Source: Candidatus Hermodarchaeota archaeon (GTDB lineage: Archaea; Asgardarchaeota; Lokiarchaeia; Sigyniarchaeales; SOKP01). From it: a stretch of 64,000 bases of DNA. Positions 2,582 to 60,155 of this stretch are shown here, in pieces; the stretch's first letter is position 1; each line of letters opens with the position of its first letter. A program made the position numbers and the translations under genes. Below the pieces are notes generated by a model. That model was not told where the DNA came from and did not search any database. It saw only the letters and a list, made by a program, of their open reading frames with translations. The stretch lies in NCBI GenBank assembly GCA_048885525.1, contig JBHLLP010000012.1:5721-69720 (forward strand), read 5' to 3'.

Positions 2582-2662
2582 TAATAATATTATAAAATTC
2601 CTATATCCATTTGGAACTCTTAAGATATTAGAAATTTCTGATTAAATGAGAATTCACGAGAC

Positions 2663-3535: not shown

Positions 3536-3737
3536 TATAGATGCTCCAGTCTTATTTTTTCCTTGTCTAATTAATTATTGGCGGTTATCTTTAAATATTA
3601 ATTTATAAGAAATTTGATCATTTAAATATTACAATAAATTAAAAAAATCTCTAGAAGTAGGGGGCACCGCTTTTATTTGAATTAATTTATACAAAGCTAA
3701 ATTTGAAAAGAATAATAAAATGAAGGAAAATTTTTAA

Positions 3738-20246: not shown

Positions 20247-20341
20247 ATTACTAAACTCCTTTTTTTACATTTTTGTATTAATTTTTACTTTTAAATTTAA
20301 TTTATTAATAGCTTTATTAGTGTTTAAAAAATTCACACATC

Positions 20342-21223: not shown

Positions 21224-21225
21224 TT

Positions 21226-21756
21226 TTAATCATCCTCCTTTTTTTTTGCGAGATCTCCTAATCCCGTTTCTTCTATTATATATCTAATTTCATCTAGATT
21301 AGGGGGTATAAGTTGGGGTAACCCCATCCTACTTCTTCTTCTATCAATATTATCTTTTAAGCCACCAGTATAAGGTACTACATATCCATTATCATAGATT
21401 GTAACAACAGTTCCTGAATATTCTTTGGGAATTTTTCCCAATTTAACTGCCATGTTACGAAGAAGAGCAAGAATAAAAGAGTAATCTACATTCTTTGGAC
21501 ATCTTTCAGTGCATCTATGGCATAAAGAACACGTCCAAATTGCTTGACTTGAAAGAACTTCATCTTTTAAACCTAAAAGACAGGATGCAACAACTCTATG
21601 TGGTTGCATATCAACATATTCCGTTACAGTACAGCCTGAGCTACATACACCACATTGGATACAGTTTAGAAGTGATTTTGCACCAACTTTTTGACTAATT
21701 TCATAACGAAAATTATGATCTAAATTTTTAGCATCTTTTTTCATCATTTCTGACAT
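21226..21756 (-). CDS. hdrC: Heterodisulfide reductase subunit C (2x[4Fe-4S])
   Basis: 176 aa. CIQCGVCSSGC and CSLCHRCTERCP. 2-nt spacers to both hdrA and hdrB. Confidence 0.8.
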   Translation of the reverse strand: MSEMMKKDAKNLDHNFRYEISQKVGAKSLLNCIQCGVCSSGCTVTEYVDMQPHRVVASCLLGLKDEVLSSQAIWTCSLCHRCTERCPKNVDYSFILALLRNMAVKLGKIPKEYSGTVVTIYDNGYVVPYTGGLKDNIDRRRSRMGLPQLIPPNLDEIRYIIEETGLGDLAKKKEDD

Positions 21757-21758
21757 TT

Positions 21759-24700
21759 TTAAGCAGCCTCCTTAGCTTTTTGTTTTTTTTCAATTTTATC
21801 ACCTGTTTTAGGAAGTGGTCCTAATTCTTTAATTTGATTAACAAACTCAGTGATAACTTGAGAAAATCGTTTTCCTTCTGAAGCGCTTATCCATTCAAGA
21901 TGATATCTATCGGAATTGATGCCAACACTTTCAAGTATATCTTTAAGCTCATTGTAACGTTGTAACATGTCATAATTTCCTTCTAAATAGTGACAGTCAC
22001 CGATATGACATCCTCCAACAAACACACCGTCAGCACCTTCCAAAAATGCTTGTAAAATAAAGCTTTTGGGTATTCTGCCAGTACACATCACTCGTATTGG
22101 TCGAATATTAGTTGGATATTGAAAGCGGCTTACACCACATGTGTCAGCACCAGCATAACTACACCAATTACATAAGAAAGTTACGATTCTAGGCCTTTCA
22201 TCTAAATATTCACCCTTGACAGCTTCACGGATCATAGGATAAATTTGATTATCTGCGAAATGACTCATTGTTATCGCTCCTGCGGGACATGCAGCCGAAC
22301 AATCGCCACAACCTTTACATAAAAGAGGATTAGTTTCTGAAACTAAAACATTTTTATCAAAGTTAACTCCTATAGCTCCAAAGTTGCAAACTTCTTCACA
22401 TTTTTGACATGCAATACATAGTGCTGGATCAACAAGCGATACGAGCGGTTCATTTTCCACTTCTCCTGAGATTAATGGAATTAAAGCATGAGCTGCCGCA
22501 CCTCTACCTTGTGAGATTGAATCTGCAATTCCTTTGGGACCATGGCAAGTTCCTGCTAGGTATATACCATCAGTTGCAAAATCTACTGGTCTTAATTTAA
22601 TATGAGCTTCTAAGAAAAAACCATTTTGATCTCGAGCACATTTTATCATCTCACCTAATTTTTGAGTATCATGAGGTATTAAGGGTGTAGATAAAACTAC
22701 TTTGTCAGTCTCAATAGTAAGGTTAGTTTGAGTTAGAATATCTTTAACCATTACATTCAATTTACCATTTTTAACATCAACAGTAGGATATTCGTTAAAA
22801 CGTATATAGTTTACATTCTCACGTGCTTCCCAGTAAAAAGGTTCTTCATTGGTCCCTACTCGGATATCTCTATATAAAACATAAATAGTTGAGTGTGGAT
22901 ATGTTTCTCTTACGTATAAAGCATGTCTGATTGACTCTGAACAACAAATTAATGAACAATATGTGACCCCATTTCCACCTTCTGGTTGTCTAGAACCCAC
23001 ACAATGGATAAAAACAAGAGTTTCTCCATCTTTTAGTTCATTATTCCTAAGTTTTTCAGATAATTCAAGTTGTGTCATAACATTATTATTTTCACCATAA
23101 TGAAACCATCCAATGGGTTTATACTCATAAGCACCAGTAGCAGCTATAATTGTACCAATATTCAAACTAATATCTTTCCCTTCAAAATTGTTTGTAACTC
23201 TGACTTTAAAATCTCCAATAGATCCTTTCACATCAGTAACTTCAGAATTTAAATAAATAGTAACATTCTTATGTTCATTGAATTCTTTTAACTCTGCTTC
23301 TATAAACTCCTTTGAGTCAATTCTATCGAAATTGATTTTATAGATTGAGTTTAATTGCCCTCCTAGTTTATCATCTTTTTCTATTAAATGCACTTTAAAG
23401 CCCTTATTGGCGATTTCCAGAGCTGCACTCATTCCAGCTATCCCTCCACCTATTACCATTGCTTCGGGAATAACATTACCTTTAATTTTTAACTCTGCTT
23501 TTTGTGCTGCTACACGAGCAACACCCATTCTGATAAGGTCCTTTGCTTTATCGGTTGCTTTAGGGTTATCATTCATATGTACCCATGAATCTAACTCTCT
23601 AATACTTACGAAATTAAACAAATATTCATTTAAACCTGCTTCCCTAATGGTCTTTTGGAATAATGGTTCGTGAGTTCTTGGTGTACATGCTGCAACTACA
23701 ACCCTATTTAAGTTTAATTCTTCTATCTTTTCTTTTATAATGTCTTGGGTTAATTGTGAGCAGCTATACTTATTTTCCATTGAATAAACTACATTTGGAA
23801 GTGTTTTTGTATAATCAACTAATTTAGGAACATCCATATATCCTGCAATATTAACACCACAGCGACATATGAATACACCAATTCGAGGTTGATCCTTTGG
23901 ATTTATGGGTTTAAGAGGAGGAAGATCTACTTTCGTTTCTTCGGCACTTAATGGAACAGCATGAGTTGCTGCTAAAGCTGCTGCTCCACCCGCCTTTGCC
24001 ACCGAATTTGCAATATCATCAGGAGATTGGCATGAACCAGTCACATATATTCCTTCTCTTGTAGAACATAGATCTTCTATAGAATCTTTGGTTTTGAAAA
24101 ACCCGAAATCATTTTGTTCAATTCCTAGTATCTTCGCTAATTGTTCAGTGTCTTTTCGGGGAGTAACAGCATTTGCAAGGACAACTAGGTCAAATTCACT
24201 AACTTCAACCTCACCGGTATCAAGGTTTGCATGCTTAACATATAGATTATGATTTTCTGGATTTTCACGGATATCTCCAGGAATTCCTCTATAATACAAT
24301 ATATTATACTCCTCTTTAGCTCTTTCAATAAACTCCTCTTGATTTTTTCCTATAACTCTAGTATCGTTGAAGAAGATCGTTACATTTGTATCGGGAGCAT
24401 GCTCTCTCGTAACTACTCCTTCTTTAGTTTGATACATACAACAAAATTTAGAGCAATAAGGACATAAATCTATGTTTCTCGAACCTACACAACTAATAAA
24501 ACCTATATTATACGCATGCTCCTTATCTGAGGGTCTTAATATTTCACCTTCAGTAGGACCAGATGCACTTAGTAATCGTTCATACTGCATCGCAGTAATA
24601 ACATTTGGATATTCCCCATAATGATAACGATCAAGAACACTAGGGTCTAGTTGATCATATCCAGTAGCACAAATGATAGATGCTACGTTATACTCAACAA

Positions 24701-25241
24701 TTTCATCTTTCATATCCCAATTAATAGCTCCTGCCTCACATTCTTTTTCACAGAGTTTGCAAGCGTTTTTCGTAAAAAATAAGCATCTTTCTGCATCAAT
24801 GACTGCTTTTCTTGGTACTGCTTGCGGAAATGGAATATAAATAGCTGTACGATAACCCATACCTTCTTCAAATTCTGAAGGTATTTTTTTCATAGGACAT
24901 TTCTCCATACATTGTCCACAACCAGTGCACACATCCCAATCAACATATCTAGACTTTTTAAGTACTTTTATGTTAAAATTTCCAGCTTCACCTGAAATTT
25001 CCTGTATTTCTGAATATGCTATGAGTTCTACATTAGGATGCCTAGACACTTCTACCATTTTAGGAGCCAGAATACATATACTGCAGTCTAATGTTGGAAA
25101 GGTTTTATCGAGTTGTGCCATTCGGCCTCCAACAGAAGGAGTTTTTTCAACAAGAATTACTTTATATCCTTGTTCAGCTAAAGTTAATGCTGCTTCGATT
25201 CCACTAATACCTGCACCGATAATTAATATTTTACTATTCAT
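21759..25241 (-). CDS. hdrA: Tandem HdrA-HdrA-MvhD fusion protein (flavin/Fe-S electron-bifurcation-type subunit)
   Basis: 1160 aa. First FAD module GAGISG (res 8-13) with CTGCGQCMEKCP and CVGSR...CPYCSKFCC. HdrA N-terminal-type FICRCGVNI (res 458-466). Second FAD module GGGIAG (598-603) with CVGSR...YCSLICC. 2x[4Fe-4S] CIACQKCEEVC and CKGCGDCSAACP. MvhD domain (about 1017-1140) with FLCNWCSYAGADTCG and GGCHIGDCH. Confidence 0.85.
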   Translation of the reverse strand: MNSKILIIGAGISGIEAALTLAEQGYKVILVEKTPSVGGRMAQLDKTFPTLDCSICILAPKMVEVSRHPNVELIAYSEIQEISGEAGNFNIKVLKKSRYVDWDVCTGCGQCMEKCPMKKIPSEFEEGMGYRTAIYIPFPQAVPRKAVIDAERCLFFTKNACKLCEKECEAGAINWDMKDEIVEYNVASIICATGYDQLDPSVLDRYHYGEYPNVITAMQYERLLSASGPTEGEILRPSDKEHAYNIGFISCVGSRNIDLCPYCSKFCCMYQTKEGVVTREHAPDTNVTIFFNDTRVIGKNQEEFIERAKEEYNILYYRGIPGDIRENPENHNLYVKHANLDTGEVEVSEFDLVVLANAVTPRKDTEQLAKILGIEQNDFGFFKTKDSIEDLCSTREGIYVTGSCQSPDDIANSVAKAGGAAALAATHAVPLSAEETKVDLPPLKPINPKDQPRIGVFICRCGVNIAGYMDVPKLVDYTKTLPNVVYSMENKYSCSQLTQDIIKEKIEELNLNRVVVAACTPRTHEPLFQKTIREAGLNEYLFNFVSIRELDSWVHMNDNPKATDKAKDLIRMGVARVAAQKAELKIKGNVIPEAMVIGGGIAGMSAALEIANKGFKVHLIEKDDKLGGQLNSIYKINFDRIDSKEFIEAELKEFNEHKNVTIYLNSEVTDVKGSIGDFKVRVTNNFEGKDISLNIGTIIAATGAYEYKPIGWFHYGENNNVMTQLELSEKLRNNELKDGETLVFIHCVGSRQPEGGNGVTYCSLICCSESIRHALYVRETYPHSTIYVLYRDIRVGTNEEPFYWEARENVNYIRFNEYPTVDVKNGKLNVMVKDILTQTNLTIETDKVVLSTPLIPHDTQKLGEMIKCARDQNGFFLEAHIKLRPVDFATDGIYLAGTCHGPKGIADSISQGRGAAAHALIPLISGEVENEPLVSLVDPALCIACQKCEEVCNFGAIGVNFDKNVLVSETNPLLCKGCGDCSAACPAGAITMSHFADNQIYPMIREAVKGEYLDERPRIVTFLCNWCSYAGADTCGVSRFQYPTNIRPIRVMCTGRIPKSFILQAFLEGADGVFVGGCHIGDCHYLEGNYDMLQRYNELKDILESVGINSDRYHLEWISASEGKRFSQVITEFVNQIKELGPLPKTGDKIEKKQKAKEAA

Positions 25242-25804: not shown

Positions 25805-26491
25805 AAAAGTATTAAAATTCTTGTTTCTGGGCCACTTCAATCAGGAAAGTCAAGTTATATTAAAGCTTTAGACGATAATGCATTGAATGTTGAAGCACAA
25901 GGTAAAGACCAGAAGTTTTATACAGTTGCGATGGATTTAGGATGCGTTAAATTAAATGGATTTGAATGTTACTTATTTGGTACACCGGGTCTTTTGCGGT
26001 TTTCTGTAATGAGAAATATCGTTACTAATGGTAGTGATGGATTAGTTTTTATATTCGATGCTGCTGCTCCTGAAAAAGATGATAGTGCAATTATGATATT
26101 AAATTCTATTAGAAAAATATTACCGACCAATATCCCAACTGTTTTTTTGGCAAACAAACAAGATGTTGAAGGTGCTCGAACCCCAGAAGTTATCCGATCA
26201 CAGAATTATTTACCCGAAGATAGTAGAATCTTTCCAACAAGTTCAAAAACAGGATTAAACATAAGAGAATCTATTACACACTTAGTTAATCATATATATG
26301 AAAAATATTCATCATTACTACAAACTCTTCGTGTGTATGAGAATGATATTGAAGGTTTAGCTGAAGAATTAAAAAAAGATACAATTCAAATGCGAGATTT
26401 CTTAAATAATTTAGAAATTAAACGATTTATTGAAATAGATAGGATTTCTAAAACATATAAGGTACGACAAGGATTAAAATATTTAGTATAA
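25805..26491 (+). CDS. Small GTPase (COG2229/CvnD-like) with C-terminal winged-helix-like tail; start codon unresolved, possible frameshift or pseudogene
   Basis: The track ORF starts at TTG 25883. However, the same frame upstream to 25805 encodes KSIKILVSGPLQSGKSSYIKALDDNA, the P-loop (GPLQSGKS). Downstream motifs are LFGTPGLLRF (G3) and LANKQDVEG (G4). There is no ATG/GTG/TTG between the in-frame TGA at 25802 and TTG 25883. Confidence 0.7.
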   Translation, partial: KSIKILVSGPLQSGKSSYIKALDDNALNVEAQGKDQKFYTVAMDLGCVKLNGFECYLFGTPGLLRFSVMRNIVTNGSDGLVFIFDAAAPEKDDSAIMILNSIRKILPTNIPTVFLANKQDVEGARTPEVIRSQNYLPEDSRIFPTSSKTGLNIRESITHLVNHIYEKYSSLLQTLRVYENDIEGLAEELKKDTIQMRDFLNNLEIKRFIEIDRISKTYKVRQGLKYLV

Positions 26492-32177: not shown

Positions 32178-33101
32178 TTATATTAATTGTTCTAAAATCT
32201 TAACCAAACTATCAAGAAAAACTGGGAACTTTTCAAAGAATTTTTCTTTATATTGGTCTTTAAGTACTGCTGAAATGAAAAACGTGTCATTTTTAATTTT
32301 CTTTTTTAGTAGATATGAAAAGAGCTTACCTTCAGTTGAGGTAAAATCAAAATTTCCTTCATATTTTTCCTCTTCCATCCGTTTAAGTAAAAAGAGATGC
32401 TCTTTAATGGATTCTAACAACTCAACATATACTTCGGCTTCTATATCGCTGTAATATTCAGAAACAATAATTCCATTCCGATCGAATAAAATAAGAGCTT
32501 GACTTTGAAATATTTCTAAATAATATTCTAATAATTCTGAAAGCTCAAAGAATTTTTTATCAAAAACAGATAAGCCATATGAGACTAACTGAACGATCGA
32601 AATGATATCATAAATTGATGATTGTTGAAATAAAATATTGAAATTCGGATAATCATTCAAAATTTTTTTTCTTAATTTTTCAATATTAGCTAAAATTTTA
32701 ACATCAGCTTTTAAATCTGGATCATATTTATGAAAAGTGATAATAATGGGGACATTCATTTCGCTTTTTTCAAAAAAACTTAGAATTGCATTTAAATATT
32801 CAAGTGAGTCATCAAATCGATCTGGATCTTGAATATCGATAACATAGATAAGTAAATCAGTAGCATCAAAATACACATCTTGATAATTGACGTAAATCTC
32901 TCTATAAGTTTCTTGTCCTCCCATATCCCAGAATACAGTATTACTTTTTAAAAAATTCATCTTATGGTATTCTACTCTAATAGTAGGTTTAAGTTGGACA
33001 ATATCCTTTTCAAAATCATATTTTTTATCTAAGGCTGTTAAGATTGAAGTCTTTCCGGCGTTATCAAGTCCTGAAATTATACACTTTAATAGACCTTCCA
33101 A
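32178..33101 (-). CDS. Rag/Gtr-type small GTPase with C-terminal roadblock domain
   Basis: 307 aa, TTG start. G1 GLDNAGKTS, G3 WDMGGQETY, G4 HKYD (His, as in RagA HKMD), SSIYD (RagA TSIWD). C-terminal ALILFDRNGIIVSEYY parallels RagA EVLLFERATFLVISHY. Comparison is to RagA as I recall it. Confidence 0.75.
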   Translation of the reverse strand: MEGLLKCIISGLDNAGKTSILTALDKKYDFEKDIVQLKPTIRVEYHKMNFLKSNTVFWDMGGQETYREIYVNYQDVYFDATDLLIYVIDIQDPDRFDDSLEYLNAILSFFEKSEMNVPIIITFHKYDPDLKADVKILANIEKLRKKILNDYPNFNILFQQSSIYDIISIVQLVSYGLSVFDKKFFELSELLEYYLEIFQSQALILFDRNGIIVSEYYSDIEAEVYVELLESIKEHLFLLKRMEEEKYEGNFDFTSTEGKLFSYLLKKKIKNDTFFISAVLKDQYKEKFFEKFPVFLDSLVKILEQLI

Positions 33102-34108: not shown

Positions 34109-35152
34109 TTATTTCTTAAATCGCTCACATTTGTTTAAATTTTTAATTTGCTTTAATACTGATTTAGGTAAAGTATTTTGATTTCCCTCTTTTAACGCAA
34201 GTATTTTAGTTATGATAAGAAGTTCATTTTGATCAAATCCATCAATATTAGTCCATCCTGTCGATTCTCCCGCTTCAATACATATAAAAAATGGGGCTTT
34301 TTTGCATTTCAAGCATCTGCTGTCCATACATTTCTTACATATTTTAGGATAATAATACACATTCCCATTTTTAAGGAAAATTGAAAATTGACCAAATTCT
34401 TTGTTATTAACTCTAAGCCAATTAGTAGATTCAAATTGAACGTCTAACTTTAAATTTAAAATAAACTTAACTAATTGTTCTGTATTTATAGTTTGAGTGA
34501 GATTTGCATTGTGAGATTCAGGTTCATAATAATCATTACATTCATCACTTATATTAGAATGAGAGAAGAGAAGGTTTAAGGGAATAAAGTCGATTATGTA
34601 AACATTATCTATTTCTTTACATTTAGATTTTTTAAAAAAAAATGAACAAATTTGGTATAATATGTTTGAGGGTTTAGATATTTCATTAATTTCAATATTG
34701 TTTGATTTTATTAATGAGTTAAAATTCTCGTTATTAAAATACCTATTACTAATCTCAGCTTTTGTGGATTGCTCAAGAATTATGCAAAATATTATAGTAA
34801 TTGATGGTAAACGGGTCTGGATTTCATTAAAATATTGTAGAATCTGATCTATTTTTGTTTCAGATATGAATATTATTATAGCTTCAGCCCCATTGTAAAA
34901 TACTGTACGCAAATAAGATCTCTGTTGTCTACAATCAATATTCCACAAAAGAAATTCAAATCTTTCATATTTTTTAAATAAATAATCAATTTTACTAATA
35001 TTTACTCCAATGTTTACCTTATTTTCTAAAGGTAAGGAATTTGAACTTAATTTCTTTTGAAACTCATCTTTATAATTTTCCATCCCTCCAAGGATGCAGA
35101 TTTTTTTTTTAATGAGGGGATTACTTAAAAGTGGAGTTTCTAATGAGCTCAT
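34109..35152 (-). CDS. Degenerate Ras-like (pseudo-GTPase) domain protein with Cys-rich C-terminal domain
   Basis: 347 aa. KICILGGMENYKDEF sits where G1 is expected (GxxxxGK[ST] lost). LLWNIDCRQQ replaces DxxGQ. AEAIIIFISETK is strand-like as in Ras. There is no NKxD. The C-terminal half carries CKKCMDSRCLKCKKAPFFIC. Confidence 0.45.
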   Translation of the reverse strand: MSSLETPLLSNPLIKKKICILGGMENYKDEFQKKLSSNSLPLENKVNIGVNISKIDYLFKKYERFEFLLWNIDCRQQRSYLRTVFYNGAEAIIIFISETKIDQILQYFNEIQTRLPSITIIFCIILEQSTKAEISNRYFNNENFNSLIKSNNIEINEISKPSNILYQICSFFFKKSKCKEIDNVYIIDFIPLNLLFSHSNISDECNDYYEPESHNANLTQTINTEQLVKFILNLKLDVQFESTNWLRVNNKEFGQFSIFLKNGNVYYYPKICKKCMDSRCLKCKKAPFFICIEAGESTGWTNIDGFDQNELLIITKILALKEGNQNTLPKSVLKQIKNLNKCERFKK

Positions 35153-35267: not shown

Positions 35268-35690
35268 ATGAGTAAAAGACTTGATGAATTTTATAAGAAA
35301 ATACACAACCCGAAAAATTCCATTCCTGAGTATGCCAGTATAATCATTCGCCCGGGTAAAAAGTTAATCGACTTTAAAATTAGAAAAGAAGATGCTAATA
35401 TCTTGAAAGTGATTGGCCATGAAGAGAAAAAAACTGGTTGGTTCCTACATTCTGTTCACATTCCATTAAAAAACTTAGGTTTATCTGAGGATTCAAAAGA
35501 TAAAGAAATATTAGAATATTTATCAGAACCTAGCAGAATTACAAGTAATAAAATAACTAAAGAATACGTTGAAGATTTATTAAGGAAATATGTAGAAATT
35601 TTACCTGAAAAAAAGAAGCATTTCTTTAGAACTGAAAGGTTTAAGAAAAAGAGAGAGTTTAAAACTGGGACTCAGTTAAAAGGCTTTTAA
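35268..35690 (+). CDS. Hypothetical basic protein
   Basis: 140 aa, Lys-rich, no recognised motif. Confidence 0.45.
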   Translation: MSKRLDEFYKKIHNPKNSIPEYASIIIRPGKKLIDFKIRKEDANILKVIGHEEKKTGWFLHSVHIPLKNLGLSEDSKDKEILEYLSEPSRITSNKITKEYVEDLLRKYVEILPEKKKHFFRTERFKKKREFKTGTQLKGF

Positions 35691-48614: not shown

Positions 48615-49838
48615 ATGATTAAGAATATAAATAAAGGGAATACTTTATTAGTTAAAGGTCCAGCAAGAATAACTTTACTAGAAGGAAAAGTAGATGTTAT
48701 TGGTAAGATATTTTCTCAGGATAAAAATATCCAGTCTGCTAATTCTACCGATAAAAATACATTAATTGTCCCTAGTGCCCAAGTTTATCCTCTATATGCC
48801 CTAGTTAAATCAAAGTTAGAAATTTATACTAATAATGAAGAAAATCTTAAAGAAATCCAAGAAAACACGATCTCCTCCAAGTGGAATGAAATTAAAGACT
48901 TGATAATAAACGAATTGAAAATAACTACAAATAAGCCTTTAAAAATAATGGTGTTAGGAATTAGTAGTGGAAAAACAACATTTATCAAATACTTAGCAAA
49001 TAACTTTCTTAAAGAAGGACTGAAGGGTGCATATTTAGATTCTGATTTAGGTCAACAAATTATATATATACCCACAACAATTAACATTGGTACAATTGAT
49101 GATTATATCATTTCAAGTGAGGATATTATATCTGAAAAAACCATTTTTATTGGTGCTACGTTCCCGAAAGGAGATAATAAATTTATTATCTCTCTTTCCT
49201 GTAAAGGTTTAGTCTCTGATTATGTTGCAAAATATAAAGATGTTGATTTTATTCTTATTGATACAGATGGCTGGATTAAGACTGAGGCAGGGATCATTTA
49301 TAAGAATTTTTTTATTAAAGTATTAGATCCAGATATCATAATTGTGTTTCACGATGAGACAATTGAAGAATTACTCGCTATAGAGAAGAGTTTCTCGAAT
49401 TTAAGAAAAGATAGAACAATGTATTTAATTAAGGAGAAAAATATATATTTTTATGAAAAAGATAAGGAAGAAAGAAGATTTTTACGCCAAAGTCAATTCT
49501 CTAAAAAATTTGAGGTGTTTAGGAAAATATCAATCCCTTTAAATGACACGAAATTTATAAAAACTGAATATGATAAAGAAAGAGATCAAATTATCGAAAA
49601 GAAAATTGATGTTAATGACCTTGTTACGCTTCCTTACCATTATGTAATAATAGGTTTAATGACTGAAGAATCAGATTTATTAGAAATAGGTCTCTTATTT
49701 ACAGTAAATATTGAAAAAAACTATATTTTATTATATTCAAACATTTCATATAAAGAACAACTAAAAGTAAAAAAGATATTGCTTGGAAGCTTAAGACTTA
49801 GCACGAAGGGTAACCATCAAGGATATCTATATCTTTAA
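48615..49838 (+). CDS. Clp1/Grc3-like polynucleotide 5'-kinase homolog
   Basis: 407 aa. N-terminal GNTLLVKGPARITLLEGKVDVIGKIF, P-loop VLGISSGKTT (first Gly position is Leu), YLDSDLGQQ, LIDTDGW. Confidence 0.6.
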   Translation: MIKNINKGNTLLVKGPARITLLEGKVDVIGKIFSQDKNIQSANSTDKNTLIVPSAQVYPLYALVKSKLEIYTNNEENLKEIQENTISSKWNEIKDLIINELKITTNKPLKIMVLGISSGKTTFIKYLANNFLKEGLKGAYLDSDLGQQIIYIPTTINIGTIDDYIISSEDIISEKTIFIGATFPKGDNKFIISLSCKGLVSDYVAKYKDVDFILIDTDGWIKTEAGIIYKNFFIKVLDPDIIIVFHDETIEELLAIEKSFSNLRKDRTMYLIKEKNIYFYEKDKEERRFLRQSQFSKKFEVFRKISIPLNDTKFIKTEYDKERDQIIEKKIDVNDLVTLPYHYVIIGLMTEESDLLEIGLLFTVNIEKNYILLYSNISYKEQLKVKKILLGSLRLSTKGNHQGYLYL

Positions 49839-49965: not shown

Positions 49966-51408
49966 ATGGACGAACTTCTCACAAAGTTTTTAAAATTGAT
50001 GTCCGCAAGAATTACAGATTCAGATTTAGAATTAATTAATTTAGGAAAATCTTTAGGATTAGATTTAGTATCTTTTGCCGATTTAAGAGCCTCACAAGAA
50101 GATATATTTGCTGATGAAGTAAGACAAAAAGCTTTAGAGATAATGGAAAAAAATAAGGATAATGTTTTAAGTACTTTAGATTCATTTTATGCTGGAAGTA
50201 TTGATTTTATGGTCTCAGATGAAGCCGAAGAGAAAAAGTTTTTTTTATTAGAAACTAATGGAGGATCTCATCGAGGACTTTCAATAATTACTGAAAAACA
50301 ACAAATTCTTCTATATGATGGATATTTAGAAGCTATTAAACAAGCAATTAAAAGAAAAGAGAATACTATAGATAATGTATTTGTAATAATTGGAGTACCA
50401 ATTAACGATGGATTAATTCATGAAAAAGTTATAATGATTGAATATTTCAGAAAAACACTTAAAGCTAATGGGTATTCTGTAAAAATTTTTAATACGGATA
50501 ATTACAATAAGGACTTTAAAGCTGAAATCATTGTTTTAATAGCTGATTATCAGCAACTATCCTCATCTCTTTCATTTTCTAATAATTGGATTAAATATAA
50601 AGGAGAGAACGTAGGAGTATTAATAGGAGATGGTATTACAAGACGTTTTAAGAATAAAAAATTTTCAAAATTAGTGAAAAAAGAGTTTCGAGAAATAAAA
50701 TCAATTTTAGTTAACCCTATATTTCATATAACAGATGATAAATCTCTAACATATTTAGCAAGCTATTTTAGTAAAGATCTCCTCAAAAAATATAATTTAA
50801 AATATCTTTTATTCACAAAAGCTTTTAATGAAAAGGATTTGATCGATAAATTAAAATATCTTATTAAGGAATATAAAAAATCTTTTATTATTAAACCTAG
50901 TGGGGGTTCTGGAGGAGCTGGCGTCATTCCCGTTTCTAAGGATGAAGATCCTCTTAATATTAAAAATATTGTTGAAGAAAGTAAAAAGGAATTTTTTGCT
51001 AAGTTCATGAAGTCGCGCGATCCTTTTCCATATACGATTCAAGAAATGGCCGATTTCTCATTAATAGAGTGGCAGGAAGGGAAACACACATTTGATTTAC
51101 GGATTTATTTAGCTCAAAGAGATGGTAAAGTTATCCCAATTGGAGGGTTAGCTAGAATTGCCCGAGAAGAATTTATTCATAAAAAAAGACTGAATAAGCA
51201 AGAATTTGTAGTCAATCTATCTGGCTACAATGGTCAAATTGAAGTTAAACGTGGAATAGGTTTCTCGGAAAAAAACTGTAAACTATTAAACTTAACAAAA
51301 GATGATTTTACAAATATGTTTTGCATAGGTTGTGTTTTATTTTCGGGAATGGTTAAAAATTATCATAAAATCATCAATTTTACAAATTGGGAAGAAATAT
51401 TCGATTGA
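49966..51408 (+). CDS. ATP-grasp-like amidoligase, apparently circularly permuted
   Basis: 480 aa. FFLLETNGGSHRG (E-x-N type) near residue 95. FIIKPSGGSGGAGV, YTIQEM, HTFDLRIYL, LARIA and VVNLSGYNG lie at about residues 305-410. Confidence 0.5.
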   Translation: MDELLTKFLKLMSARITDSDLELINLGKSLGLDLVSFADLRASQEDIFADEVRQKALEIMEKNKDNVLSTLDSFYAGSIDFMVSDEAEEKKFFLLETNGGSHRGLSIITEKQQILLYDGYLEAIKQAIKRKENTIDNVFVIIGVPINDGLIHEKVIMIEYFRKTLKANGYSVKIFNTDNYNKDFKAEIIVLIADYQQLSSSLSFSNNWIKYKGENVGVLIGDGITRRFKNKKFSKLVKKEFREIKSILVNPIFHITDDKSLTYLASYFSKDLLKKYNLKYLLFTKAFNEKDLIDKLKYLIKEYKKSFIIKPSGGSGGAGVIPVSKDEDPLNIKNIVEESKKEFFAKFMKSRDPFPYTIQEMADFSLIEWQEGKHTFDLRIYLAQRDGKVIPIGGLARIAREEFIHKKRLNKQEFVVNLSGYNGQIEVKRGIGFSEKNCKLLNLTKDDFTNMFCIGCVLFSGMVKNYHKIINFTNWEEIFD

Positions 51409-51409
51409 G

Positions 51410-52570
51410 ATGAATGCTGAAACCCTAAAATCATTATTAGATATTTCTAAACGTTACAATTTATATACAAAGATTCTGAAAGAATTAGATATTGTAAGAA
51501 ATTTAGAATATACCAGCTATCGAATTTATAATACTTCTGAAGGCATTATTCCTCTAATAAAAATTGCTAAAAATTCCAATTTTGATGAATTAAAACATAT
51601 TAAAATCTTTATTGGTGCACAGCAAAATGAATATAATGGTTTATTTAGTATCCTGAAATTTTTTAAATTAATACAAGATAATAAAATTCAAATCAATAAA
51701 TTAATCAGAGAAGATCAAGTTCTTTTCTTTTTGCCATTATTAAATCCTTATGGGTTTTTGAATCCTAGTAAAAATAATAAATCTGGTTATTATTTAAAAA
51801 ATGGTTCAAATCTTAATAGATTTTGGGTTAGAGCTTTCGTCCCTGAATATAAAAATGGGATTATAGATTTAGATACAATTAAAACACCCGAACAAGTTAT
51901 TATTGTGAAAGAATTACTTCAAAAATATTGGGATAACGAAGATATTCATATATACATACTCGATTTCCATGAGACTTCTTTATTGAATAGATTTCCAGTT
52001 GAATTAAGTACAAATCTAAATCCCTTTTATAAATTTGATCATTGGTTAAAAGAGGGTATTATACTAAATATTATTAAGCTATACGATATCCCTTATTATC
52101 GAAAACCTTTATTCTTTAAATGTAATCCTTCCGCCGATCACACGCATCTAAATTTAACTTATAAACAAATTGAGACCGTTCATGAAAAACTTTATGACTA
52201 TATATCAAGGAATTTGGGGATGGGCAAATTACCTTTCTATTTTTGCTACAGCGACAAGAGTAGAGATTTCTGTCTAAAACTTGCAAATAAAGTTTATAAT
52301 AAACTGAAAGACAAATTATGGGAAACTTACTTTCCTGCTTTTGATCATAGTTTTAAAAATCATGGTTGTTTTGTAAGAATGAGTGATGCGACATCTCGAG
52401 CTAGAGTTTATAGCATGGAATTAGAATCTCAAAAACATTTCTTCAACATCTTTGAAGAAATAAAAAAATTAAAATCAGTTCCTAATTACATTGAAAATAA
52501 ACTTGATCTCATTAATGTGAGTATTGAATTAGCACTTGAGACTATAAAGGAGATGATAGAATTATTTTAA
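51410..52570 (+). CDS. M14 zinc-carboxypeptidase-like protein with variant metal site
   Basis: 386 aa from ATG 51410, 1 nt after the upstream stop. The track TTG start 51332 overlaps the upstream gene. IGAQQNEYNG sits where HxxE is expected. LLNPYGF, GSNLNRFW, ILDFHETS. Confidence 0.5.
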   Translation: MNAETLKSLLDISKRYNLYTKILKELDIVRNLEYTSYRIYNTSEGIIPLIKIAKNSNFDELKHIKIFIGAQQNEYNGLFSILKFFKLIQDNKIQINKLIREDQVLFFLPLLNPYGFLNPSKNNKSGYYLKNGSNLNRFWVRAFVPEYKNGIIDLDTIKTPEQVIIVKELLQKYWDNEDIHIYILDFHETSLLNRFPVELSTNLNPFYKFDHWLKEGIILNIIKLYDIPYYRKPLFFKCNPSADHTHLNLTYKQIETVHEKLYDYISRNLGMGKLPFYFCYSDKSRDFCLKLANKVYNKLKDKLWETYFPAFDHSFKNHGCFVRMSDATSRARVYSMELESQKHFFNIFEEIKKLKSVPNYIENKLDLINVSIELALETIKEMIELF

Positions 52571-53706: not shown

Positions 53707-54036
53707 TTATTTTTTAGCTTTATCTGGAGGACATCCGAAATCATCCCTTACTTTACAATTTCTTTTGCTAGAACTGCCTGGGCATGGAGCACATTTAACT
53801 TTTCGCATAAGAGCTTCAACTTCATCTATCTCATAACCAAAAGATTCCTCCTCTGTCTCATCTACTAGCATATCATCCTTAATTTTACTCAGATCATAAT
53901 CTATATCTTCTTCTAGATTATCTTTCCAATCTTCCAAATCTAAAATCTCATCCCCATCTTCATCAATTTTTCCTGATGGAAGTTCTAAATCTTCATCCTC
54001 AACAGGAGCACTCTTTTTTTTAGCCATGTTATTCAC
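53707..54036 (-). CDS. Highly acidic small protein with basic four-Cys C-terminal tail
   Basis: 109 aa, 33 D/E by my count. The tail is KVKCAPCPGSSSKRNCKVRDDFGCPPDKAKK. Confidence 0.5.
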   Translation of the reverse strand: MNNMAKKKSAPVEDEDLELPSGKIDEDGDEILDLEDWKDNLEEDIDYDLSKIKDDMLVDETEEESFGYEIDEVEALMRKVKCAPCPGSSSKRNCKVRDDFGCPPDKAKK

Positions 54037-54182: not shown

Positions 54183-56273
54183 CTAGGATACATCTTTAAT
54201 ATAGATCTGATTAATTTGATCCAAGAGAGGTTCATTCTTGTATATAATGTTGAATATGTTCTTAATTTCATCTAAAGTAGGCTCCAGCTCTTCTATTAAG
54301 TACGTTTCATAATTATCAATCTTATATCGCGGTATGAGGTACTTAAATTGAATGTTTTTCAGTTCTATTTTCGAGTATAAGAATTCTCTTATAAAACTGA
54401 AATCAATATTAGATTCTAAATATAACTCATCTAAATATATTAGTTTTACTAAGGAATTACATAATTTTATAAAAAATCGTAATAATCTTTTAAGTTCCAG
54501 TTGATATTTTTGATTTAGAAATTTTAGATCTAGAGTTCTATAGATAAATTTTGAACTTAGATCATAATGCAATTGAGATAAAATTTGAATAATTTTTCCA
54601 CAATTGGATAATGATAAAGGAAGATTTTTTGGTATTGGCAATCTTCTTATAAAACTTCCATTGAATCTTAAATAGCCACCGGCCATGTGAAGAGAACTAA
54701 ATAATGTTTTAAATACAGTATCTAATAGTGTTGAGTTCAATAATGCTAAGAGACAATATAACTGCTGAGTATTTATCGAAGGGATCCTCATTAAATATAA
54801 ACCAGTTATATTAGCAAAGATTCCAGGGTCATACACACAGGTTAATTCTTTGGCAATTTCTCTAAAAATAATTTTTTCATTTTTTAGGTCCTGCCAAATA
54901 GGATTAAAAGTAGGATTATAATTAAAATAACAGATTTCAAGATCTCTCTTAGCTATCTTTATCCTTTTATTAAATTTAAGATAATATTTGTCGACATTTC
55001 CTGTCCCAATTAATAGTAAATCAAGATCAGATTGGGGTTCATCGCTGATATTATCAAAATATTTGCCATATTTTAAAAAACCAAAAGGGCGATATATAAT
55101 TTTCAAATCTTTGAAAGTTTCAGATAACGTTTTAAAGTTTCTAAACAAGTATGAAATTATGTTAATATTTCCTGAGATCGGTATTACTTTTGACGGGAAT
55201 ATATTGATTAGATTTTGATTGAATTTTATTATCTTTATACTATTATTTTCATTTAACTCATTTAGGTTATTAAAAGCTTTAACATTCACCTCATGTTCCT
55301 TTTTTTGCTTAACCTTTTTTAGCGATAAAATAATTGGATATGTAGCTACATTTTGAAATATAGATATCGACGATATATTTATGATTTCTTTAATTTCTGA
55401 TTTATTTAATATTAACTCTCTAATTTTGATACCATAATCAGCAGATAAGAATTTATTAGGTAAAATGAATGAAAGATATCCATTACTTTCTAATAATTCT
55501 AACGCTCTCTCAATAAAGAGGATTGAAAGATCAAATAAACGATAGGCTGTTTTATATCTTTTAGTTAAATTGTTCTTGAATTCAATTGGTTTTATCTTTT
55601 TATTTTCTACATAAGGAGGATTTCCAATTATTATATCGAATTTATCAGAATTAAACTCTAAAAGAAAATCTAAATTAAAAAGATTAAAACTTAGATTTAA
55701 GAGCTCAATGATTTGGTTAAAATTTGTGATTTTTATGTTTTTAAAATTATCATTTTGAAATGTAAAGTTATTGTTATCTGTTATTAAAAGCCATTTAATT
55801 AATCGCAGTTTTGAGATAAGAATACCTGATTTTTCAATTTCAATTCCATACAGATTTTTTTCAATTATTAATTTCTTTATATCAAAATCAGATAATTTTG
55901 GCTCTAACATTCTATAAATATAATACAATTTTTCAGCTATAGATACTAAAAATCTCCCAGAGCCACAAGAAGGGTCTAGAATCCTTATATTTTTAATTAT
56001 TTTAATTAAATTCTCTTTAGTTTTTAGATTTTTAATTAGTGTATGAATAACTTCTTCTAAATCCGATCCATTTTTAATTTCTTTATTAAAAGAAACAAAT
56101 TTTTCGAAATAGATTCTAAAGATCTTAGTTACTATATAATCTACAACTTGGTTCGGTGTATAGATTATTCCAAGATTCCGACTCTTATCCTTTTCGAGAA
56201 ATTTTTCATTTTCAAATCTCTCAATTCGTTTCTCAATATTATTTAATAATTTTTTAACTACTGATCCTTCCAT
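54183..56273 (-). CDS. Eco57I/TaqI-like gamma-class N6-adenine DNA methyltransferase with target-recognition domain; no nuclease domain recognised
   Basis: 696 aa. GIIYTPNQVVDYIV, motif I ILDPSCGSGRFL, motif IV IIGNPPYV, TaqI_C-like LALLNSTLLD...GGYLRF...LPIP. Confidence 0.75.
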   Translation of the reverse strand: MEGSVVKKLLNNIEKRIERFENEKFLEKDKSRNLGIIYTPNQVVDYIVTKIFRIYFEKFVSFNKEIKNGSDLEEVIHTLIKNLKTKENLIKIIKNIRILDPSCGSGRFLVSIAEKLYYIYRMLEPKLSDFDIKKLIIEKNLYGIEIEKSGILISKLRLIKWLLITDNNNFTFQNDNFKNIKITNFNQIIELLNLSFNLFNLDFLLEFNSDKFDIIIGNPPYVENKKIKPIEFKNNLTKRYKTAYRLFDLSILFIERALELLESNGYLSFILPNKFLSADYGIKIRELILNKSEIKEIINISSISIFQNVATYPIILSLKKVKQKKEHEVNVKAFNNLNELNENNSIKIIKFNQNLINIFPSKVIPISGNINIISYLFRNFKTLSETFKDLKIIYRPFGFLKYGKYFDNISDEPQSDLDLLLIGTGNVDKYYLKFNKRIKIAKRDLEICYFNYNPTFNPIWQDLKNEKIIFREIAKELTCVYDPGIFANITGLYLMRIPSINTQQLYCLLALLNSTLLDTVFKTLFSSLHMAGGYLRFNGSFIRRLPIPKNLPLSLSNCGKIIQILSQLHYDLSSKFIYRTLDLKFLNQKYQLELKRLLRFFIKLCNSLVKLIYLDELYLESNIDFSFIREFLYSKIELKNIQFKYLIPRYKIDNYETYLIEELEPTLDEIKNIFNIIYKNEPLLDQINQIYIKDVS

Positions 56274-56384: not shown

Positions 56385-57290
56385 TTGAATTTTGTAGACA
56401 ATTCAGCTTTATATGAATTAATAAATAACCCACAGAAAATCTCTGCACTAAAATTTGATATTATTTTAAATATCATAAAGACATTTAAATGTATTTTAGA
56501 AAAAGAAAATTTACTCTTGGAGGTTAATTTTAAAGAAAAAAAGGAAGAAGCTTATGTAATAGGGGATATACATGGAAATTTGGAGACTTTAACAAAATTG
56601 ATTGAAATAATTAACCATAAAAATCCAAAAATCATCATTTTTTTAGGAGACATTGTCGATCGTGGACCAAAACAATTTGAATGCTTAATGATAGTCTTAA
56701 TTTTAAAGATTCTTCACCCATCAAAATATTATTTATTAAGAGGAAATCATGAAACATTAGAAATGAATGAATATTACGGTTTCTTTCAGGATTTTATTTC
56801 AAGATTTAAAAATCAGAGCAAATTCAATGAAATTTTGAGTATTTATAATCTAATACCGATATGTGCATTAATTAATAAAGCAATATTATGTTTGCATGGA
56901 GGGATTCCAGAGGATTTTGACATTTTAAAAAAATTGCAAGGTCAAAGATGCATGAACTTTAAAGAAGTTTTCAATTTAAATATGCAAGGGATTTATCAAA
57001 TTATGTGGAATGATCCTAAATCTGGATTAGAAGGATTTTCAGACAGTTTTAGAGGTCCAGGAATTAAATTTTTTGGATATGATGTTTTTGAAAATTTTAT
57101 GAAATATAACAATCTTAAATACATAATTAGATCACATGAATGTTTTTCTGAAGGATATCGATGGTTTTTTAACAAAAGATTATTATCTATATTTTCATCC
57201 GCAAATTATCGAGGATTTTATAGTCCAAATCCCGCATCTTATGCAATAATAAGAAATAATGAAATAGTTCCAAAATTATTGGTTTTATAA
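56385..57290 (+). CDS. PPP-family Ser/Thr protein phosphatase (PP1/PP2A-like)
   Basis: 301 aa, TTG start. GDIHG, GDIVDRG, RGNHE, LHGG, RSHE. Confidence 0.85.
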   Translation: MNFVDNSALYELINNPQKISALKFDIILNIIKTFKCILEKENLLLEVNFKEKKEEAYVIGDIHGNLETLTKLIEIINHKNPKIIIFLGDIVDRGPKQFECLMIVLILKILHPSKYYLLRGNHETLEMNEYYGFFQDFISRFKNQSKFNEILSIYNLIPICALINKAILCLHGGIPEDFDILKKLQGQRCMNFKEVFNLNMQGIYQIMWNDPKSGLEGFSDSFRGPGIKFFGYDVFENFMKYNNLKYIIRSHECFSEGYRWFFNKRLLSIFSSANYRGFYSPNPASYAIIRNNEIVPKLLVL

Positions 57291-57747: not shown

Positions 57748-58365
57748 TTGGTTATCATTGTGGAAGAACACTTTAAAAATAAAAATAAAAAGAAAACCAT
57801 AATAGAAAAATACAATTCATCATCGCATTTTTATGACAAAAGGTACAAGGCACTACAAAAAGAAAAATATGAAATAATATTAAAAAACTACATAGCTAAT
57901 GGAAAAACTATCTTAGATCTAGGGTGTGGTACTGGTTTATTTTTTGAATATATAGTATTATCGTTAAAGAAGCAACATGAAATAAGAATTAACTACATAG
58001 CATTAGATATCTCTAGGAATATGCTATTACGTTTCAAATCCAAGGTTATATTTCATAATATAAAATCTATAAATTTGATACTATCAGATATTGAACATTT
58101 ACCTTTCAGAGATAATATTTTTCATTCAATTTTTTCAATTACTTCTTTCCAAAATTTACCACATATTCAGATTGGAATCAGAGAATCATTTAGGGTAAGT
58201 AAAAATAATGCAGAGTATAAATTTTCAATATTAAGAAAAAAAATAGAATTGCAATTGTTATTAAAAATATTTAAACCTAAGATTAAAGAAATAGAAATAA
58301 TAAGTAAAGAAAATCTAGAAGATATTATAATTCAAGGAAAAATTTCAAAAGATCAAGCAATTTAA
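57748..58365 (+). CDS. Class I SAM-dependent methyltransferase
   Basis: 205 aa. Motif I ILDLGCGTGLF, ALDIS. Convergent with rio2 across a 2-nt gap. Confidence 0.65.
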   Translation: MVIIVEEHFKNKNKKKTIIEKYNSSSHFYDKRYKALQKEKYEIILKNYIANGKTILDLGCGTGLFFEYIVLSLKKQHEIRINYIALDISRNMLLRFKSKVIFHNIKSINLILSDIEHLPFRDNIFHSIFSITSFQNLPHIQIGIRESFRVSKNNAEYKFSILRKKIELQLLLKIFKPKIKEIEIISKENLEDIIIQGKISKDQAI

Positions 58366-58367
58366 AT

Positions 58368-59246
58368 TCATTTTTTATAAAAATAGCTAAGGATCTTATC
58401 CATATTACTTTCAATGTTAAACTTTTTTTGAAAATACGTACATATATTCTCAAGATCCCTCTCCAAAAGTAAATTAGCATTAGGATGGTCAGTTGGAACC
58501 CATTGCAGCCAATCAATTATTAAAATATTGCCTTTCTCATCCAAAACAACATTGAATTCACCCAAATCACCATGAATCATTTTTGCTTTTTTATAGATTA
58601 TTCTGTATTGTTTTATAATTCTATTGAAAATTTTGATAGGATTTTTAATACTTTTATAATAAACCAATTCTTTTCCTCTTAGATATGACATTACAATAAT
58701 ATGTCTATTATAGGCTATTGGTTTTGGAGTGTTAAGTTTGAGTATATAGATTTTTTCAAGAGCTTCATATTCTTTTTTGGCAGCAAGCCTATTTACATAA
58801 AGCCAAGAAAGATGTGATCTCTCTCCAATAATGTCTCTAAGTTGTTTGATGCTTTTAAAACTTGTTCTTCCAATTCGATAAAATTTAGCAGCATAAATGT
58901 TTTCATCATCATCCATACAACTATAAACATCTGATTCTTTGCCTTTACCTATTAAAGGCCCTAATTGACTAATGACATTTTTTTCGACTAGGGTATGTAA
59001 AGCAAGCAAATCATATGCCTTAGAATTAAGAGTATAAGCAATTTCATACTTAGAGGCATCTCTAATTATTAGCCCGAGCTTATGAACTTTTTTCAACCGA
59101 AAAAGAGTCTCTTCCATCTTATATCTTGAATAAAATTTTATATTGTTGACTGTAACATACTCGGATCTTTTCATTCCAATTTCAATTGCCATAAGTATTC
59201 TTAGATCTTCCTTTTCCAATTCAGTAAGAAGATTTGCTACTTCCAC
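58368..59246 (-). CDS. rio2: RIO2-type serine kinase (N-terminal winged helix + RIO domain)
   Basis: 292 aa, GTG start. wHTH LRILMAIEIGMKRSEYV, IGKGKESDVY, HGDLGEFNV, IIDWLQ. Confidence 0.85.
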   Translation of the reverse strand: MEVANLLTELEKEDLRILMAIEIGMKRSEYVTVNNIKFYSRYKMEETLFRLKKVHKLGLIIRDASKYEIAYTLNSKAYDLLALHTLVEKNVISQLGPLIGKGKESDVYSCMDDDENIYAAKFYRIGRTSFKSIKQLRDIIGERSHLSWLYVNRLAAKKEYEALEKIYILKLNTPKPIAYNRHIIVMSYLRGKELVYYKSIKNPIKIFNRIIKQYRIIYKKAKMIHGDLGEFNVVLDEKGNILIIDWLQWVPTDHPNANLLLERDLENICTYFQKKFNIESNMDKILSYFYKK

Positions 59247-59258
59247 ACTTTTTTCAGC

Positions 59259-60041
59259 TTAAAATATGAATTTACGATATGTTTTGAAAAAAGATATTAA
59301 TTTATATATATTTGGTATTTCAAAAATCAGAATTGCAGTTAAAACTAAAAGCAAAAAGACTGAGATATCTTTCTGTAATATTAAATAATTAGTTAAAGTC
59401 CAACCTTCTTGAAATAAAAATAAAAAAATACCTTGGTTTAGATATATAAATAATCCAACTGAGATAATGAGACTAATTAATGAGAAAATTATAACTTGAT
59501 GTTCATTTTCAATAAATCCAATTATAATGTTAATGATAAATAAGATTATTGTAATTAATGTAATAATTTTTGAAAGATTAATCCAATTCGTGTAAATTAT
59601 ACTACTCACCTGATAAGTTCCATTTGAAATTGGCCAAAATAATGATGTACTTAAATTTATAAAAGACAAAATTGGTAAAACTACCCCAATGATTATTGAA
59701 ATACTATAAATCCGTATTGTTGTAAATTTGTTGAATTTCAATATATTCTCCTTTCCCAATTTTGTAGATTCTAACAGATAATTAAGTTTGTTTTGAATCT
59801 CAATTGGAAAATTCTTTTTTACCATGACAATTTGGATGCTTATTTCAGGAAATTTCGAAACTAATTCGTTAATTTGGCTATATGCTTTCCTAAATTTTGT
59901 TTTCTTACTTTTAGGACCGTTCCAAAGATAAATAATTTCCTTTTCTTCATCCAATACGGCACAAATATCGTGTGATAGTAGTTGATGTTCTACTTCTATC
60001 CAAAAAGATTTAGAATCATCAAATATAAAAGTTCTCAGCAT
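59259..60041 (-). CDS. Membrane protein: N-terminal gelsolin-like domain candidate fused to about 5 TM helices
   Basis: 260 aa. FWIEVEHQLLSHDICAVLDEEKEIIYLWNGPKSKKTKFRKAYSQINELVSKF compares with gelsolin G1 IWRVE...GDAYVIL...[26 protein letters not shown], as I recall it. Hydrophobic helices run from about residue 110 to 250. Confidence 0.4.
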   Translation of the reverse strand: MLRTFIFDDSKSFWIEVEHQLLSHDICAVLDEEKEIIYLWNGPKSKKTKFRKAYSQINELVSKFPEISIQIVMVKKNFPIEIQNKLNYLLESTKLGKENILKFNKFTTIRIYSISIIIGVVLPILSFINLSTSLFWPISNGTYQVSSIIYTNWINLSKIITLITIILFIINIIIGFIENEHQVIIFSLISLIISVGLFIYLNQGIFLFLFQEGWTLTNYLILQKDISVFLLLVLTAILIFEIPNIYKLISFFKTYRKFIF

Positions 60042-60155
60042 TTATAGTCTACTTAACTTAACTAAAATTAGCTTTTATTTTTTTCGATGACATATTAACG
60101 CTCAAAAAGAGAAAAAAAAATTATAAATTTTACTCATCCTTTGAGATTAGTAGAA

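Follow-up and report, generated by a model that had tools for sequence, protein, structure and literature searches.

Can a gelsolin domain be an integral part of an archaeal membrane protein, and could such a protein act on actin at the membrane? This question is raised by an open reading frame on the minus strand of the 64-kb stretch of DNA analysed here (the window; G+C about 29%). An earlier note had read the product of this frame as a gelsolin-like N-terminal domain fused to a multi-pass membrane region. Profile searches, HHalign, Foldseek and the obligate fusion in the orthologs support that reading, and we regard the structural identity of the protein, a gelsolin domain plus a membrane module, as nearly certain. 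We call the protein TM-gelsolin. The coordinates of its parts and of other features of the window are collected in Table 1.

The TM-gelsolin gene and its family

The open reading frame was present where the earlier note had placed it, with an ATG start and a length of 260 aa, and the N-terminal peptide quoted there is residues 13-78 letter for letter. A search of 5.8 billion proteins yielded 211 homologs at E<=0.01, nearly all of them 257-261 aa long. All are named 'hypothetical protein' in their sources and none carries a precomputed Pfam domain; they bear this label because single sequences fall below the Pfam threshold. Pairwise dN/dS was 0.06-0.30 for the gelsolin domain (residues 2-95) and 0.14-0.26 for the membrane domain (residues 106-259). 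These values are well below 1, and both domains are under purifying selection. Since the homologs are of near-uniform length, dN/dS is low and a block upstream of the gene is conserved, TM-gelsolin is a real gene and not a chance open reading frame.

An exhaustive HMMER scan of 1.84 billion representatives gave 93 cluster representatives of the family (50% identity, E<=1e-3). Orthologs, for which the earlier note had proposed a search, thus do exist; all complete ones align over their whole length, and the gelsolin-membrane fusion is never split. The fusion is obligate in this family. A soluble, domain-only form was ruled out, the short database matches being fragments or truncated or chimeric gene calls, and no soluble relative of the gelsolin domain was found at E<=1e-3 among the 1.84 billion representatives.

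Besides its main clade, the family has a divergent tier of proteins of 270-350 aa, which have the same architecture and commonly a Lys-rich C-terminal tail. In several of them (e.g. P0122, P0200 and P0203) this tail is long and of low complexity, and in one it contains tandem 'KPSTTKKPAT' repeats; the window protein lacks it. Going by the topology proposed below, these tails would be cytoplasmic.

The family is small and carries Asgard labels only. The gene is present in 38 species-representative genomes, all of them Asgard MAGs, and every named source of a homolog is an Asgard MAG; no named cultured Asgard strain was among the sources found by the database searches. In NCBI, the orthologs are variously labelled Hod-, Thor-, Odin- or Hermodarchaeota or Promethearchaeota (including loci L008, L013 and L016), and the protein of the window is listed under 'Candidatus Hodarchaeota'. 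Given 65-77% identity and a common synteny among the orthologs, the labels Hod-, Thor-, Odin- and Hermodarchaeota cannot all hold and look unreliable. The best-classified MAGs with the gene belong to Promethearchaeia/Lokiarchaeia. The class label Promethearchaeia (ABR and WORC MAGs) fits the uniform synteny best, and the main clade looks like Promethearchaeia (Lokiarchaeia).

Table 1. Positions of TM-gelsolin, its predicted parts and other features in the window.
Feature	Position	Strand	Basis or remark
TM-gelsolin gene, 260 aa	59259..60041	minus	ORF list (ATG start), homologs, purifying selection
Gelsolin-homology domain, residues 1-95	59757..60041	minus	AF2 model, Foldseek, profile against PDB sequences, HHalign, motif counts
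Juxtamembrane linker, probably flexible, Lys/Arg-rich, residues 96-105	59727..59756	minus	pLDDT <50 at residues 93-98; K/R count
Predicted transmembrane helix 1 (in to out), residues 106-135	59637..59726	minus	AF2 models, hydropathy
Putative external loop 1, residues 136-146, with W136 and short strand 142-146	59604..59636	minus	AF2 models, hydropathy, K/R mean 0.3
Predicted transmembrane helix 2 (out to in), residues 147-177	59511..59603	minus	AF2 models, hydropathy
Putative cytoplasmic turn, tight, residues 178-180; acidic (E-x-E) in main clade only	59502..59510	minus	alignments
Predicted transmembrane helix 3 (in to out), residues 181-201	59439..59501	minus	AF2 models, hydropathy
Putative external loop 3, residues 202-222, NQGIFLFLFQEG	59376..59438	minus	AF2 model, 0.80 identity to consensus
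Predicted transmembrane helix 4 (out to in), residues 223-250	59292..59375	minus	AF2 models, hydropathy
Putative basic cytoplasmic tail 'SFFKTYRKFIF', residues 251-260	59262..59291	minus	2.8 K/R, 0 D/E; 0.87 identity to consensus
TM-gelsolin stop codon	59259-59261	minus	
Conserved 45-nt upstream block	60042..60087	minus	alignment of 14 species; promoter role suggested by position and composition
Rio2-type kinase gene (Rio2_N and RIO1 domains)	58368..59246	minus	starts 12 nt past TM-gelsolin stop
ORFs without Pfam match	1430-2581, 10168-11307, 35268-35690, 51332-52570	plus	
ORFs without Pfam match	2663-3535, 4731-5324, 5579-6028, 53707-54036	minus	

The gelsolin-homology domain

As a single sequence, the window protein scores 13.1-15.2 bits against Pfam PF00626 (Gelsolin; best E=0.019), below the curated threshold of 21 bits, and it matches a villin chain at E=0.005. 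Across the family, Gelsolin is the commonest weak Pfam match, found in 5 of 57 members at E<0.01 (best E=3.7e-4). The failure at the Pfam threshold is a limit of sensitivity and no evidence against gelsolin identity. The weak matches to RVT_3, AbiH, VEFS-Box and DUF7863 were ruled out, none of them recurring across members. DUF2207_C, a predicted bacterial membrane-protein C-terminal domain, gave sub-threshold matches in 3 of 57 members (best E=1e-4), which may reflect hydrophobic composition alone.

A profile built from 38 family sequences and searched against the PDB sequences returned the gelsolin family only among its top matches. Thorarchaeota ProGel (7c2f_B) came first at E=8e-4, with residues 19-72 of TM-gelsolin aligned to 23-76, followed by villin, gelsolin, CapG, adseverin and the Lokiarchaeota 2DGel. 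In the exhaustive scan, the single non-family protein recovered at E<=1e-3 was an 807-aa protein (E=5e-4), which is a villin according to Pfam, with five Gelsolin repeats (E=1e-53) and a headpiece. HHalign aligned the domain profile to repeat 1 of this villin with 93% probability (E=3e-7) and to another of its repeats with 68%. Gelsolin is thus the only family that profile searches, named by the earlier note as a check of its call, find for the N-terminal domain.

The DWG motif was used by Akil et al. as the discriminator between gelsolins and cofilins: an Asp is hydrogen-bonded to a Trp, which sterically permits Gly alone (PMC7444086; bioRxiv 768580). It consists of an Asp before strand C and Trp-x-Gly after strand D, whereas cofilins have WP instead. 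In TM-gelsolin the motif corresponds to D25, W40 and G42, and HHalign pairs these residues with the D, W and G of villin. They are the most conserved positions of the whole family: in an alignment of 57 sequences, the Asp is found in all 57 and the Gly in 56, while position 40 is Trp in 44 and Tyr or Phe in 10 more (54 aromatic in total). The type-2 Ca2+ site is incomplete. Its Asp is kept, but positions 46-52, where the long helix begins and the Glu of the site would be expected, show no conserved acidic residue, and Ca2+ control of TM-gelsolin is therefore unlikely. A Ca2+ site is not required for membership of the gelsolin superfamily, because ProGel has no complete Ca2+ sites either (PMC7444086).

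The AlphaFold2 model of TM-gelsolin (mean pLDDT 84.6) shows strands at residues 2-8, 13-17, 26-31 and 36-41, a long helix at 47-63, a strand at 70-73 and a helix at 80-94. This order, four strands, a long helix, a strand and a helix, matches in the predicted structure what defines the gelsolin fold, namely a mixed beta-sheet in the centre with a long helix on one side and a shorter helix on the other. In a Foldseek search of the PDB with this model, the best 50 matches were all gelsolin-family domains. ProGel 7c2f_B was again the best match (E=2e-5, 87 of 88 residues aligned, TM-score 0.69 on the target, about 18% identity), and no cofilin, ADF, twinfilin or Sec23/24 chain was among the best 50. 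The earlier note had proposed a comparison with gelsolin, villin and cofilin (ADF-H) folds; the predicted fold is gelsolin, and the ADF-H/cofilin reading was ruled out by the presence of WxG instead of WP and by the lack of any cofilin among these 50 matches. The assignment of the N-terminal domain as a gelsolin-homology domain is strongly supported by the profile, by HHalign and by Foldseek of the predicted structure. The domain is a single repeat of the Asgard 'ProGel' type.

The motif pattern from which the earlier note derived its call led to the right domain, but the placement of the 'W-x-E' strand was probably off, as residues 13-17 form the second strand of an N-terminal hairpin (2-8/13-17). 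We take this strand to be, probably, the one just ahead of the conserved Asp and not the first 'IWRVE' strand of G1. This would explain the spacing that had been thought too short.

The membrane module and comparison with known gelsolins

The earlier note had counted about five hydrophobic helices in the C-terminal part of the protein. Only four were found, both as Kyte-Doolittle peaks and as AF2 helices (residues 106-135, 147-177, 181-201 and 223-259). In the AF2 model a strand at 218-222 in the third loop pairs with the strand at 142-146 in the first. When modelled alone, the membrane module gave a pLDDT of 88.9 and a pTM of 0.81, and it is more confident than the gelsolin domain in the models (pLDDT above 90). 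Residues 106-250 are thus confidently predicted to form a four-helix membrane bundle. This module (residues 99-260) is not a known family in Pfam, NCBIfam, the PDB sequence profile search or Foldseek against the PDB: the profile search gave 0 matches among PDB sequences, and Foldseek against PDB structures gave nothing significant, the best matches being generic bundles (E=0.85 at best). Matches to cornichon, TRPV and ZnT (E about 1) were discounted as generic helix packing.

Basic residues are distributed unevenly along the protein. The mean number of Lys and Arg is 3.1 in residues 95-105, ahead of the first helix, and 2.8 in the C-terminal tail, but only 0.3 and 0.1 in the putative external loops; this makes about 6 for the segments proposed to be cytoplasmic and 0.4 for the external ones. 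There is no N-terminal signal peptide, because the first strand of the domain lies right at the start of the protein. The charge bias and the lack of a signal peptide suggest an N-in/C-in topology in which the gelsolin domain would face the cytoplasm.

In the main clade, the membrane module equals the gelsolin domain in conservation, which is highest in external loop 3 and the C-terminal tail. Y200, F208 and F210 are kept in both tiers of the family. The conservation of the module and of its external loop suggests that it is more than a passive anchor. On the other hand, the polar residues within the membrane part (E178, E180, Q182, E241 and N244) are clade-specific and not kept across the family, while the invariant or near-invariant positions shared by both tiers fall in the gelsolin domain, which suggests that this domain is the functional head.

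Three gelsolin architectures have been published for Asgard archaea, ProGel, 1DGelX/GelX and 2DGel, and all of them are soluble (bioRxiv 768580, among other sources). ProGel of Thorarchaeota (PDB 7C2F, Akil et al. 2020, PMC7444086) resembles TM-gelsolin in having a single gelsolin/cofilin-type core with DWG and no complete Ca2+ site. It differs in that it is soluble and consists of the domain only (88-98 aa), whereas TM-gelsolin has an additional membrane module of 160 residues with four helices; at about 18% identity to ProGel, the TM-gelsolin family is a divergent subgroup of its own. 1DGelX/GelX likewise combines a single gelsolin domain at its N-terminus with a C-terminal extension of another kind. 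However, this extension, domain X, is described as coiled-coil or disordered, and 1DGelX was purified in soluble form and runs near the size of actin, whereas TM-gelsolin is a 30-kDa protein with a hydrophobic extension of four transmembrane helices. Identity with 1DGelX was ruled out on these published descriptions (bioRxiv 768580).

The Asgard 2DGel and eukaryotic gelsolin, villin, CapG and adseverin share the domain fold and its signature with TM-gelsolin, but they have two to six repeats and WH2-like linkers, are regulated by Ca2+ and are soluble. TM-gelsolin has one repeat, no conserved Glu at the Ca2+ site and no WH2 motif, and is membrane-integral. The gelsolin-like domain of Sec23/Sec24 (COPII) also occurs in a membrane-associated context, in proteins that are peripheral multi-domain coat proteins. 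In a full-text literature search, whose coverage of subscription journals was mostly lacking, we found no membrane-anchored archaeal gelsolin domain. This agrees with the earlier note, which knew of no such protein, and the Asgard gelsolin papers among the searchable texts describe soluble forms only. What is new here is the intrinsically membrane-anchored architecture of a gelsolin-homology domain, none being described in the searchable literature; the domain fold itself is known.

Genomic neighbourhood and possible functions

In all 38 main-clade loci, the PFOR delta-alpha-beta genes, TM-gelsolin and Rio2 follow each other in this order on the same strand. Next come genes for a methyltransferase, an LSm protein, a phosphatase of the PPP type, an Eco57I-like methylase and a hydrolase. 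Where divergent-tier loci have flanking sequence (L039-L041, L043 and L044), PFOR is also near, but on the opposite strand and with one or two unrelated genes between. Rio2 is absent beside the divergent-tier genes. LSm and the methyltransferase are kept in L039 and L044, and L042 has no annotated neighbours.

A T-run follows the PFOR-beta stop. In the 114-bp spacer after this stop, the upstream block of Table 1, which begins 'AGAAAAAAATAAAAGCTAATTTTAGTTAAGTTAAGTAGA', is nearly invariant in 14 species, while the remainder is unalignable and not conserved among them. The block contains an invariant A-rich BRE/TATA-like element (60072-60085, 33-46 nt upstream of the ATG). Its conservation runs past this element into 'GTTAAGTTAAGTAG', which could be an operator or a 5'-UTR element. 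An operon with PFOR was ruled out by the T-run, by the gene's own conserved promoter-like block and by the opposite orientation in the divergent tier. The collinear 10-kb block with LSm, methyltransferases and phosphatase suggests a conserved backbone of one clade. In our reading, the neighbourhood is a conserved genome backbone and not a functional module, although TM-gelsolin and Rio2 may be co-transcribed in one clade. The earlier note had raised the possibility of linkage to actin or profilin genes. None was found: the 64-kb window and 44 related loci (38 main-clade and 6 divergent-tier; 777 kb in total) contain no actin, profilin or further gelsolin gene.

Several other features of these loci were observed. 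In L039, a UbiE-type methyltransferase gene overlaps the start of TM-gelsolin by 20 nt on the same strand (1863-3621, +); the homologous methyltransferase in the window (57748-58365) lies on the strand opposite to TM-gelsolin. The PPP-family phosphatase gene (56385-57290, +) is 2 kb away in the conserved block that holds TM-gelsolin and Rio2. The Eco57I/N6-DNA-methylase-like protein (696 aa; 54183-56273, -) keeps its position in nearly all 38 species. Restriction-modification genes are normally mobile, and such a fixed position is thus unusual.

For the protein as a whole, the explanation towards which we lean slightly is that it is an integral membrane protein whose cytoplasmic ProGel-type domain, carried on a four-helix bundle, would bind or regulate Lokiactin at the membrane. 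For the function in actin at the membrane taken by itself, we regard the chances as about even. By analogy with the soluble gelsolins, from which we infer actin binding, the most likely role is that of a membrane-fixed binder or regulator of Lokiactin.

Three other explanations have to be weighed against this one. The main rival, less likely but deserving attention, is that the gelsolin fold serves as an interaction or regulatory module that does not act on actin, as in Sec23/24, and that the membrane bundle is the functional part, as a small channel, a receptor, a scaffold or an envelope-contacting protein. The gelsolin-like domain of Sec23a has the gelsolin fold, and actin binding by it has not been shown (PMC7444086). 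The absence of cytoskeletal genes from the window and the related loci is consistent with this explanation, and so are the higher confidence of the membrane module (pLDDT above 90) and a conservation equal to that of the gelsolin domain in the main clade, with external loop 3 and the C-terminal tail conserved best. The polar residues within the membrane, however, vary across the family while the gelsolin signature is invariant, a pattern that speaks against any fixed site for catalysis or ion binding within the bundle. Moreover, the bundle is unlike any solved channel or transporter, and the best matches in sequence and structure are actin-binding gelsolins, with no Sec23/24 among the best 50. 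We favour the actin role over a non-actin one because the family-wide constraint lies on the gelsolin signature and not on the intramembrane polar residues, because the nearest relatives in sequence and structure are all actin-binding gelsolins, and because Lokiactin filaments run inside membrane protrusions.

It is improbable that TM-gelsolin works with its neighbours Rio2 or PFOR, as their partner or sensor at the membrane, with a role in ribosome maturation or energy metabolism and not in the cytoskeleton. The gene order is kept in 38 of 38 main-clade species, the gap to Rio2 is 12 nt, and PFOR stays near in five divergent-tier loci. Yet Rio2 is missing beside the divergent-tier genes, and PFOR there, on the opposite strand at a distance of one or two genes, points to a positional association and not to an operon. 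The promoter-like block and the T-run after PFOR-beta also speak against a partnership, and the collinearity of the whole 10-kb block suggests the genome backbone of one clade. Finally, convergence or a spurious match might account for the resemblance to gelsolin, and the N-terminal part would then be a small alpha/beta domain of unrelated kind; we consider this very improbable. The fold call is based on a predicted structure, and the single-sequence Pfam score of 15.2 against 21 bits is no better than the chance matches to RVT_3, AbiH and VEFS-Box. Against this, three independent methods agree on gelsolin alone, the DWG residues are the most conserved positions of the family, and no other weak Pfam family recurs.

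The preferred reading, a membrane-fixed binder or regulator of Lokiactin, may imply the following mechanism. The short, flexible, basic linker would hold the gelsolin domain a few nanometres off the inner face of the membrane, and the rest of the protein would be the four-helix bundle (N-in, C-in) with its aromatic external loop. The domain would bind either the side or end of a Lokiactin filament, as ProGel binds actin, or a Lokiactin monomer, and TM-gelsolin would in this way anchor filaments to the membrane or control them at that site. Regulation of actin by Asgard gelsolins has been demonstrated in vitro, and the binding site of ProGel is the cleft of actin (PMC7444086). The very weak binding of ProGel to rabbit actin (Kd about 337 uM) and the identity of only about 18% between ProGel and the domain of TM-gelsolin count against an actin role. 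Permanent two-dimensional confinement to the membrane, however, would raise the effective local concentration of the domain, and we propose that a weak ProGel-like affinity could then suffice for tethering, capping or nucleating filaments. In membrane protrusions, Lokiactin filaments fill the interior (PMC9834061). A co-immunoprecipitation study of Lokiactin states that it under-sampled membrane proteins.

A tentative extension, which we would place on the doubtful side, is that the family is the integral-membrane attachment point of Lokiactin, which binds, caps or nucleates filaments at the inner face and helps to shape the protrusions of Lokiarchaeia. If true, direct transmembrane coupling of a regulated actin cytoskeleton, via a gelsolin domain, would have existed already in archaea. 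Asgard archaea crawl and build actin-filled membrane protrusions, and their known actin regulators (profilins, ProGel, GelX and 2DGel) are all soluble. TM-gelsolin is a concrete candidate for the link between filament and membrane, because this conserved protein hard-wires a gelsolin domain to the membrane. Divergent gelsolin domains are missed by standard annotation, so the tally of Asgard actin-binding proteins is probably too low.

Membrane-actin linkers of eukaryotes include Dictyostelium ponticulin, supervillin and the ERM proteins, of which supervillin and ERM are peripheral and ponticulin has no gelsolin domain. TM-gelsolin may resemble them in its proposed working, by keeping an actin-binding module at the membrane. 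The analogy is purely one of function; to our knowledge, its membrane part has no homology to ponticulin, supervillin or ERM proteins.

Elsewhere in the window there are four small GTPases of Ras/Arf/Roc/RagA-like type (13084-13677, +; 25883-26491, +; 32178-33101, -; 34109-35152, -), the third of which matches both Arf and Gtr1/RagA. Several small GTPases close together are typical of Asgard genomes. A cluster at 18597-25241 (-) encodes MTHFR, DUF5981 (MetV-like), two CCG/4Fe-4S proteins (HdrB/C-like) and an HdrA-like flavoprotein of 1160 aa that is fused to an MvhD/FlpD domain. This cluster looks like an electron-bifurcating methylene-THF reductase complex, and its G+C (0.34-0.36) is higher than that of the window. 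For eight open reading frames of 109-412 aa, Pfam gave no match at E<=1e-4 (Table 1), and the last of them (53707-54036, -) keeps its synteny across the related loci. A 407-aa protein encoded at 48615-49838 (+) has a CLP1 P-loop domain, of the eukaryote-type polynucleotide kinase family.
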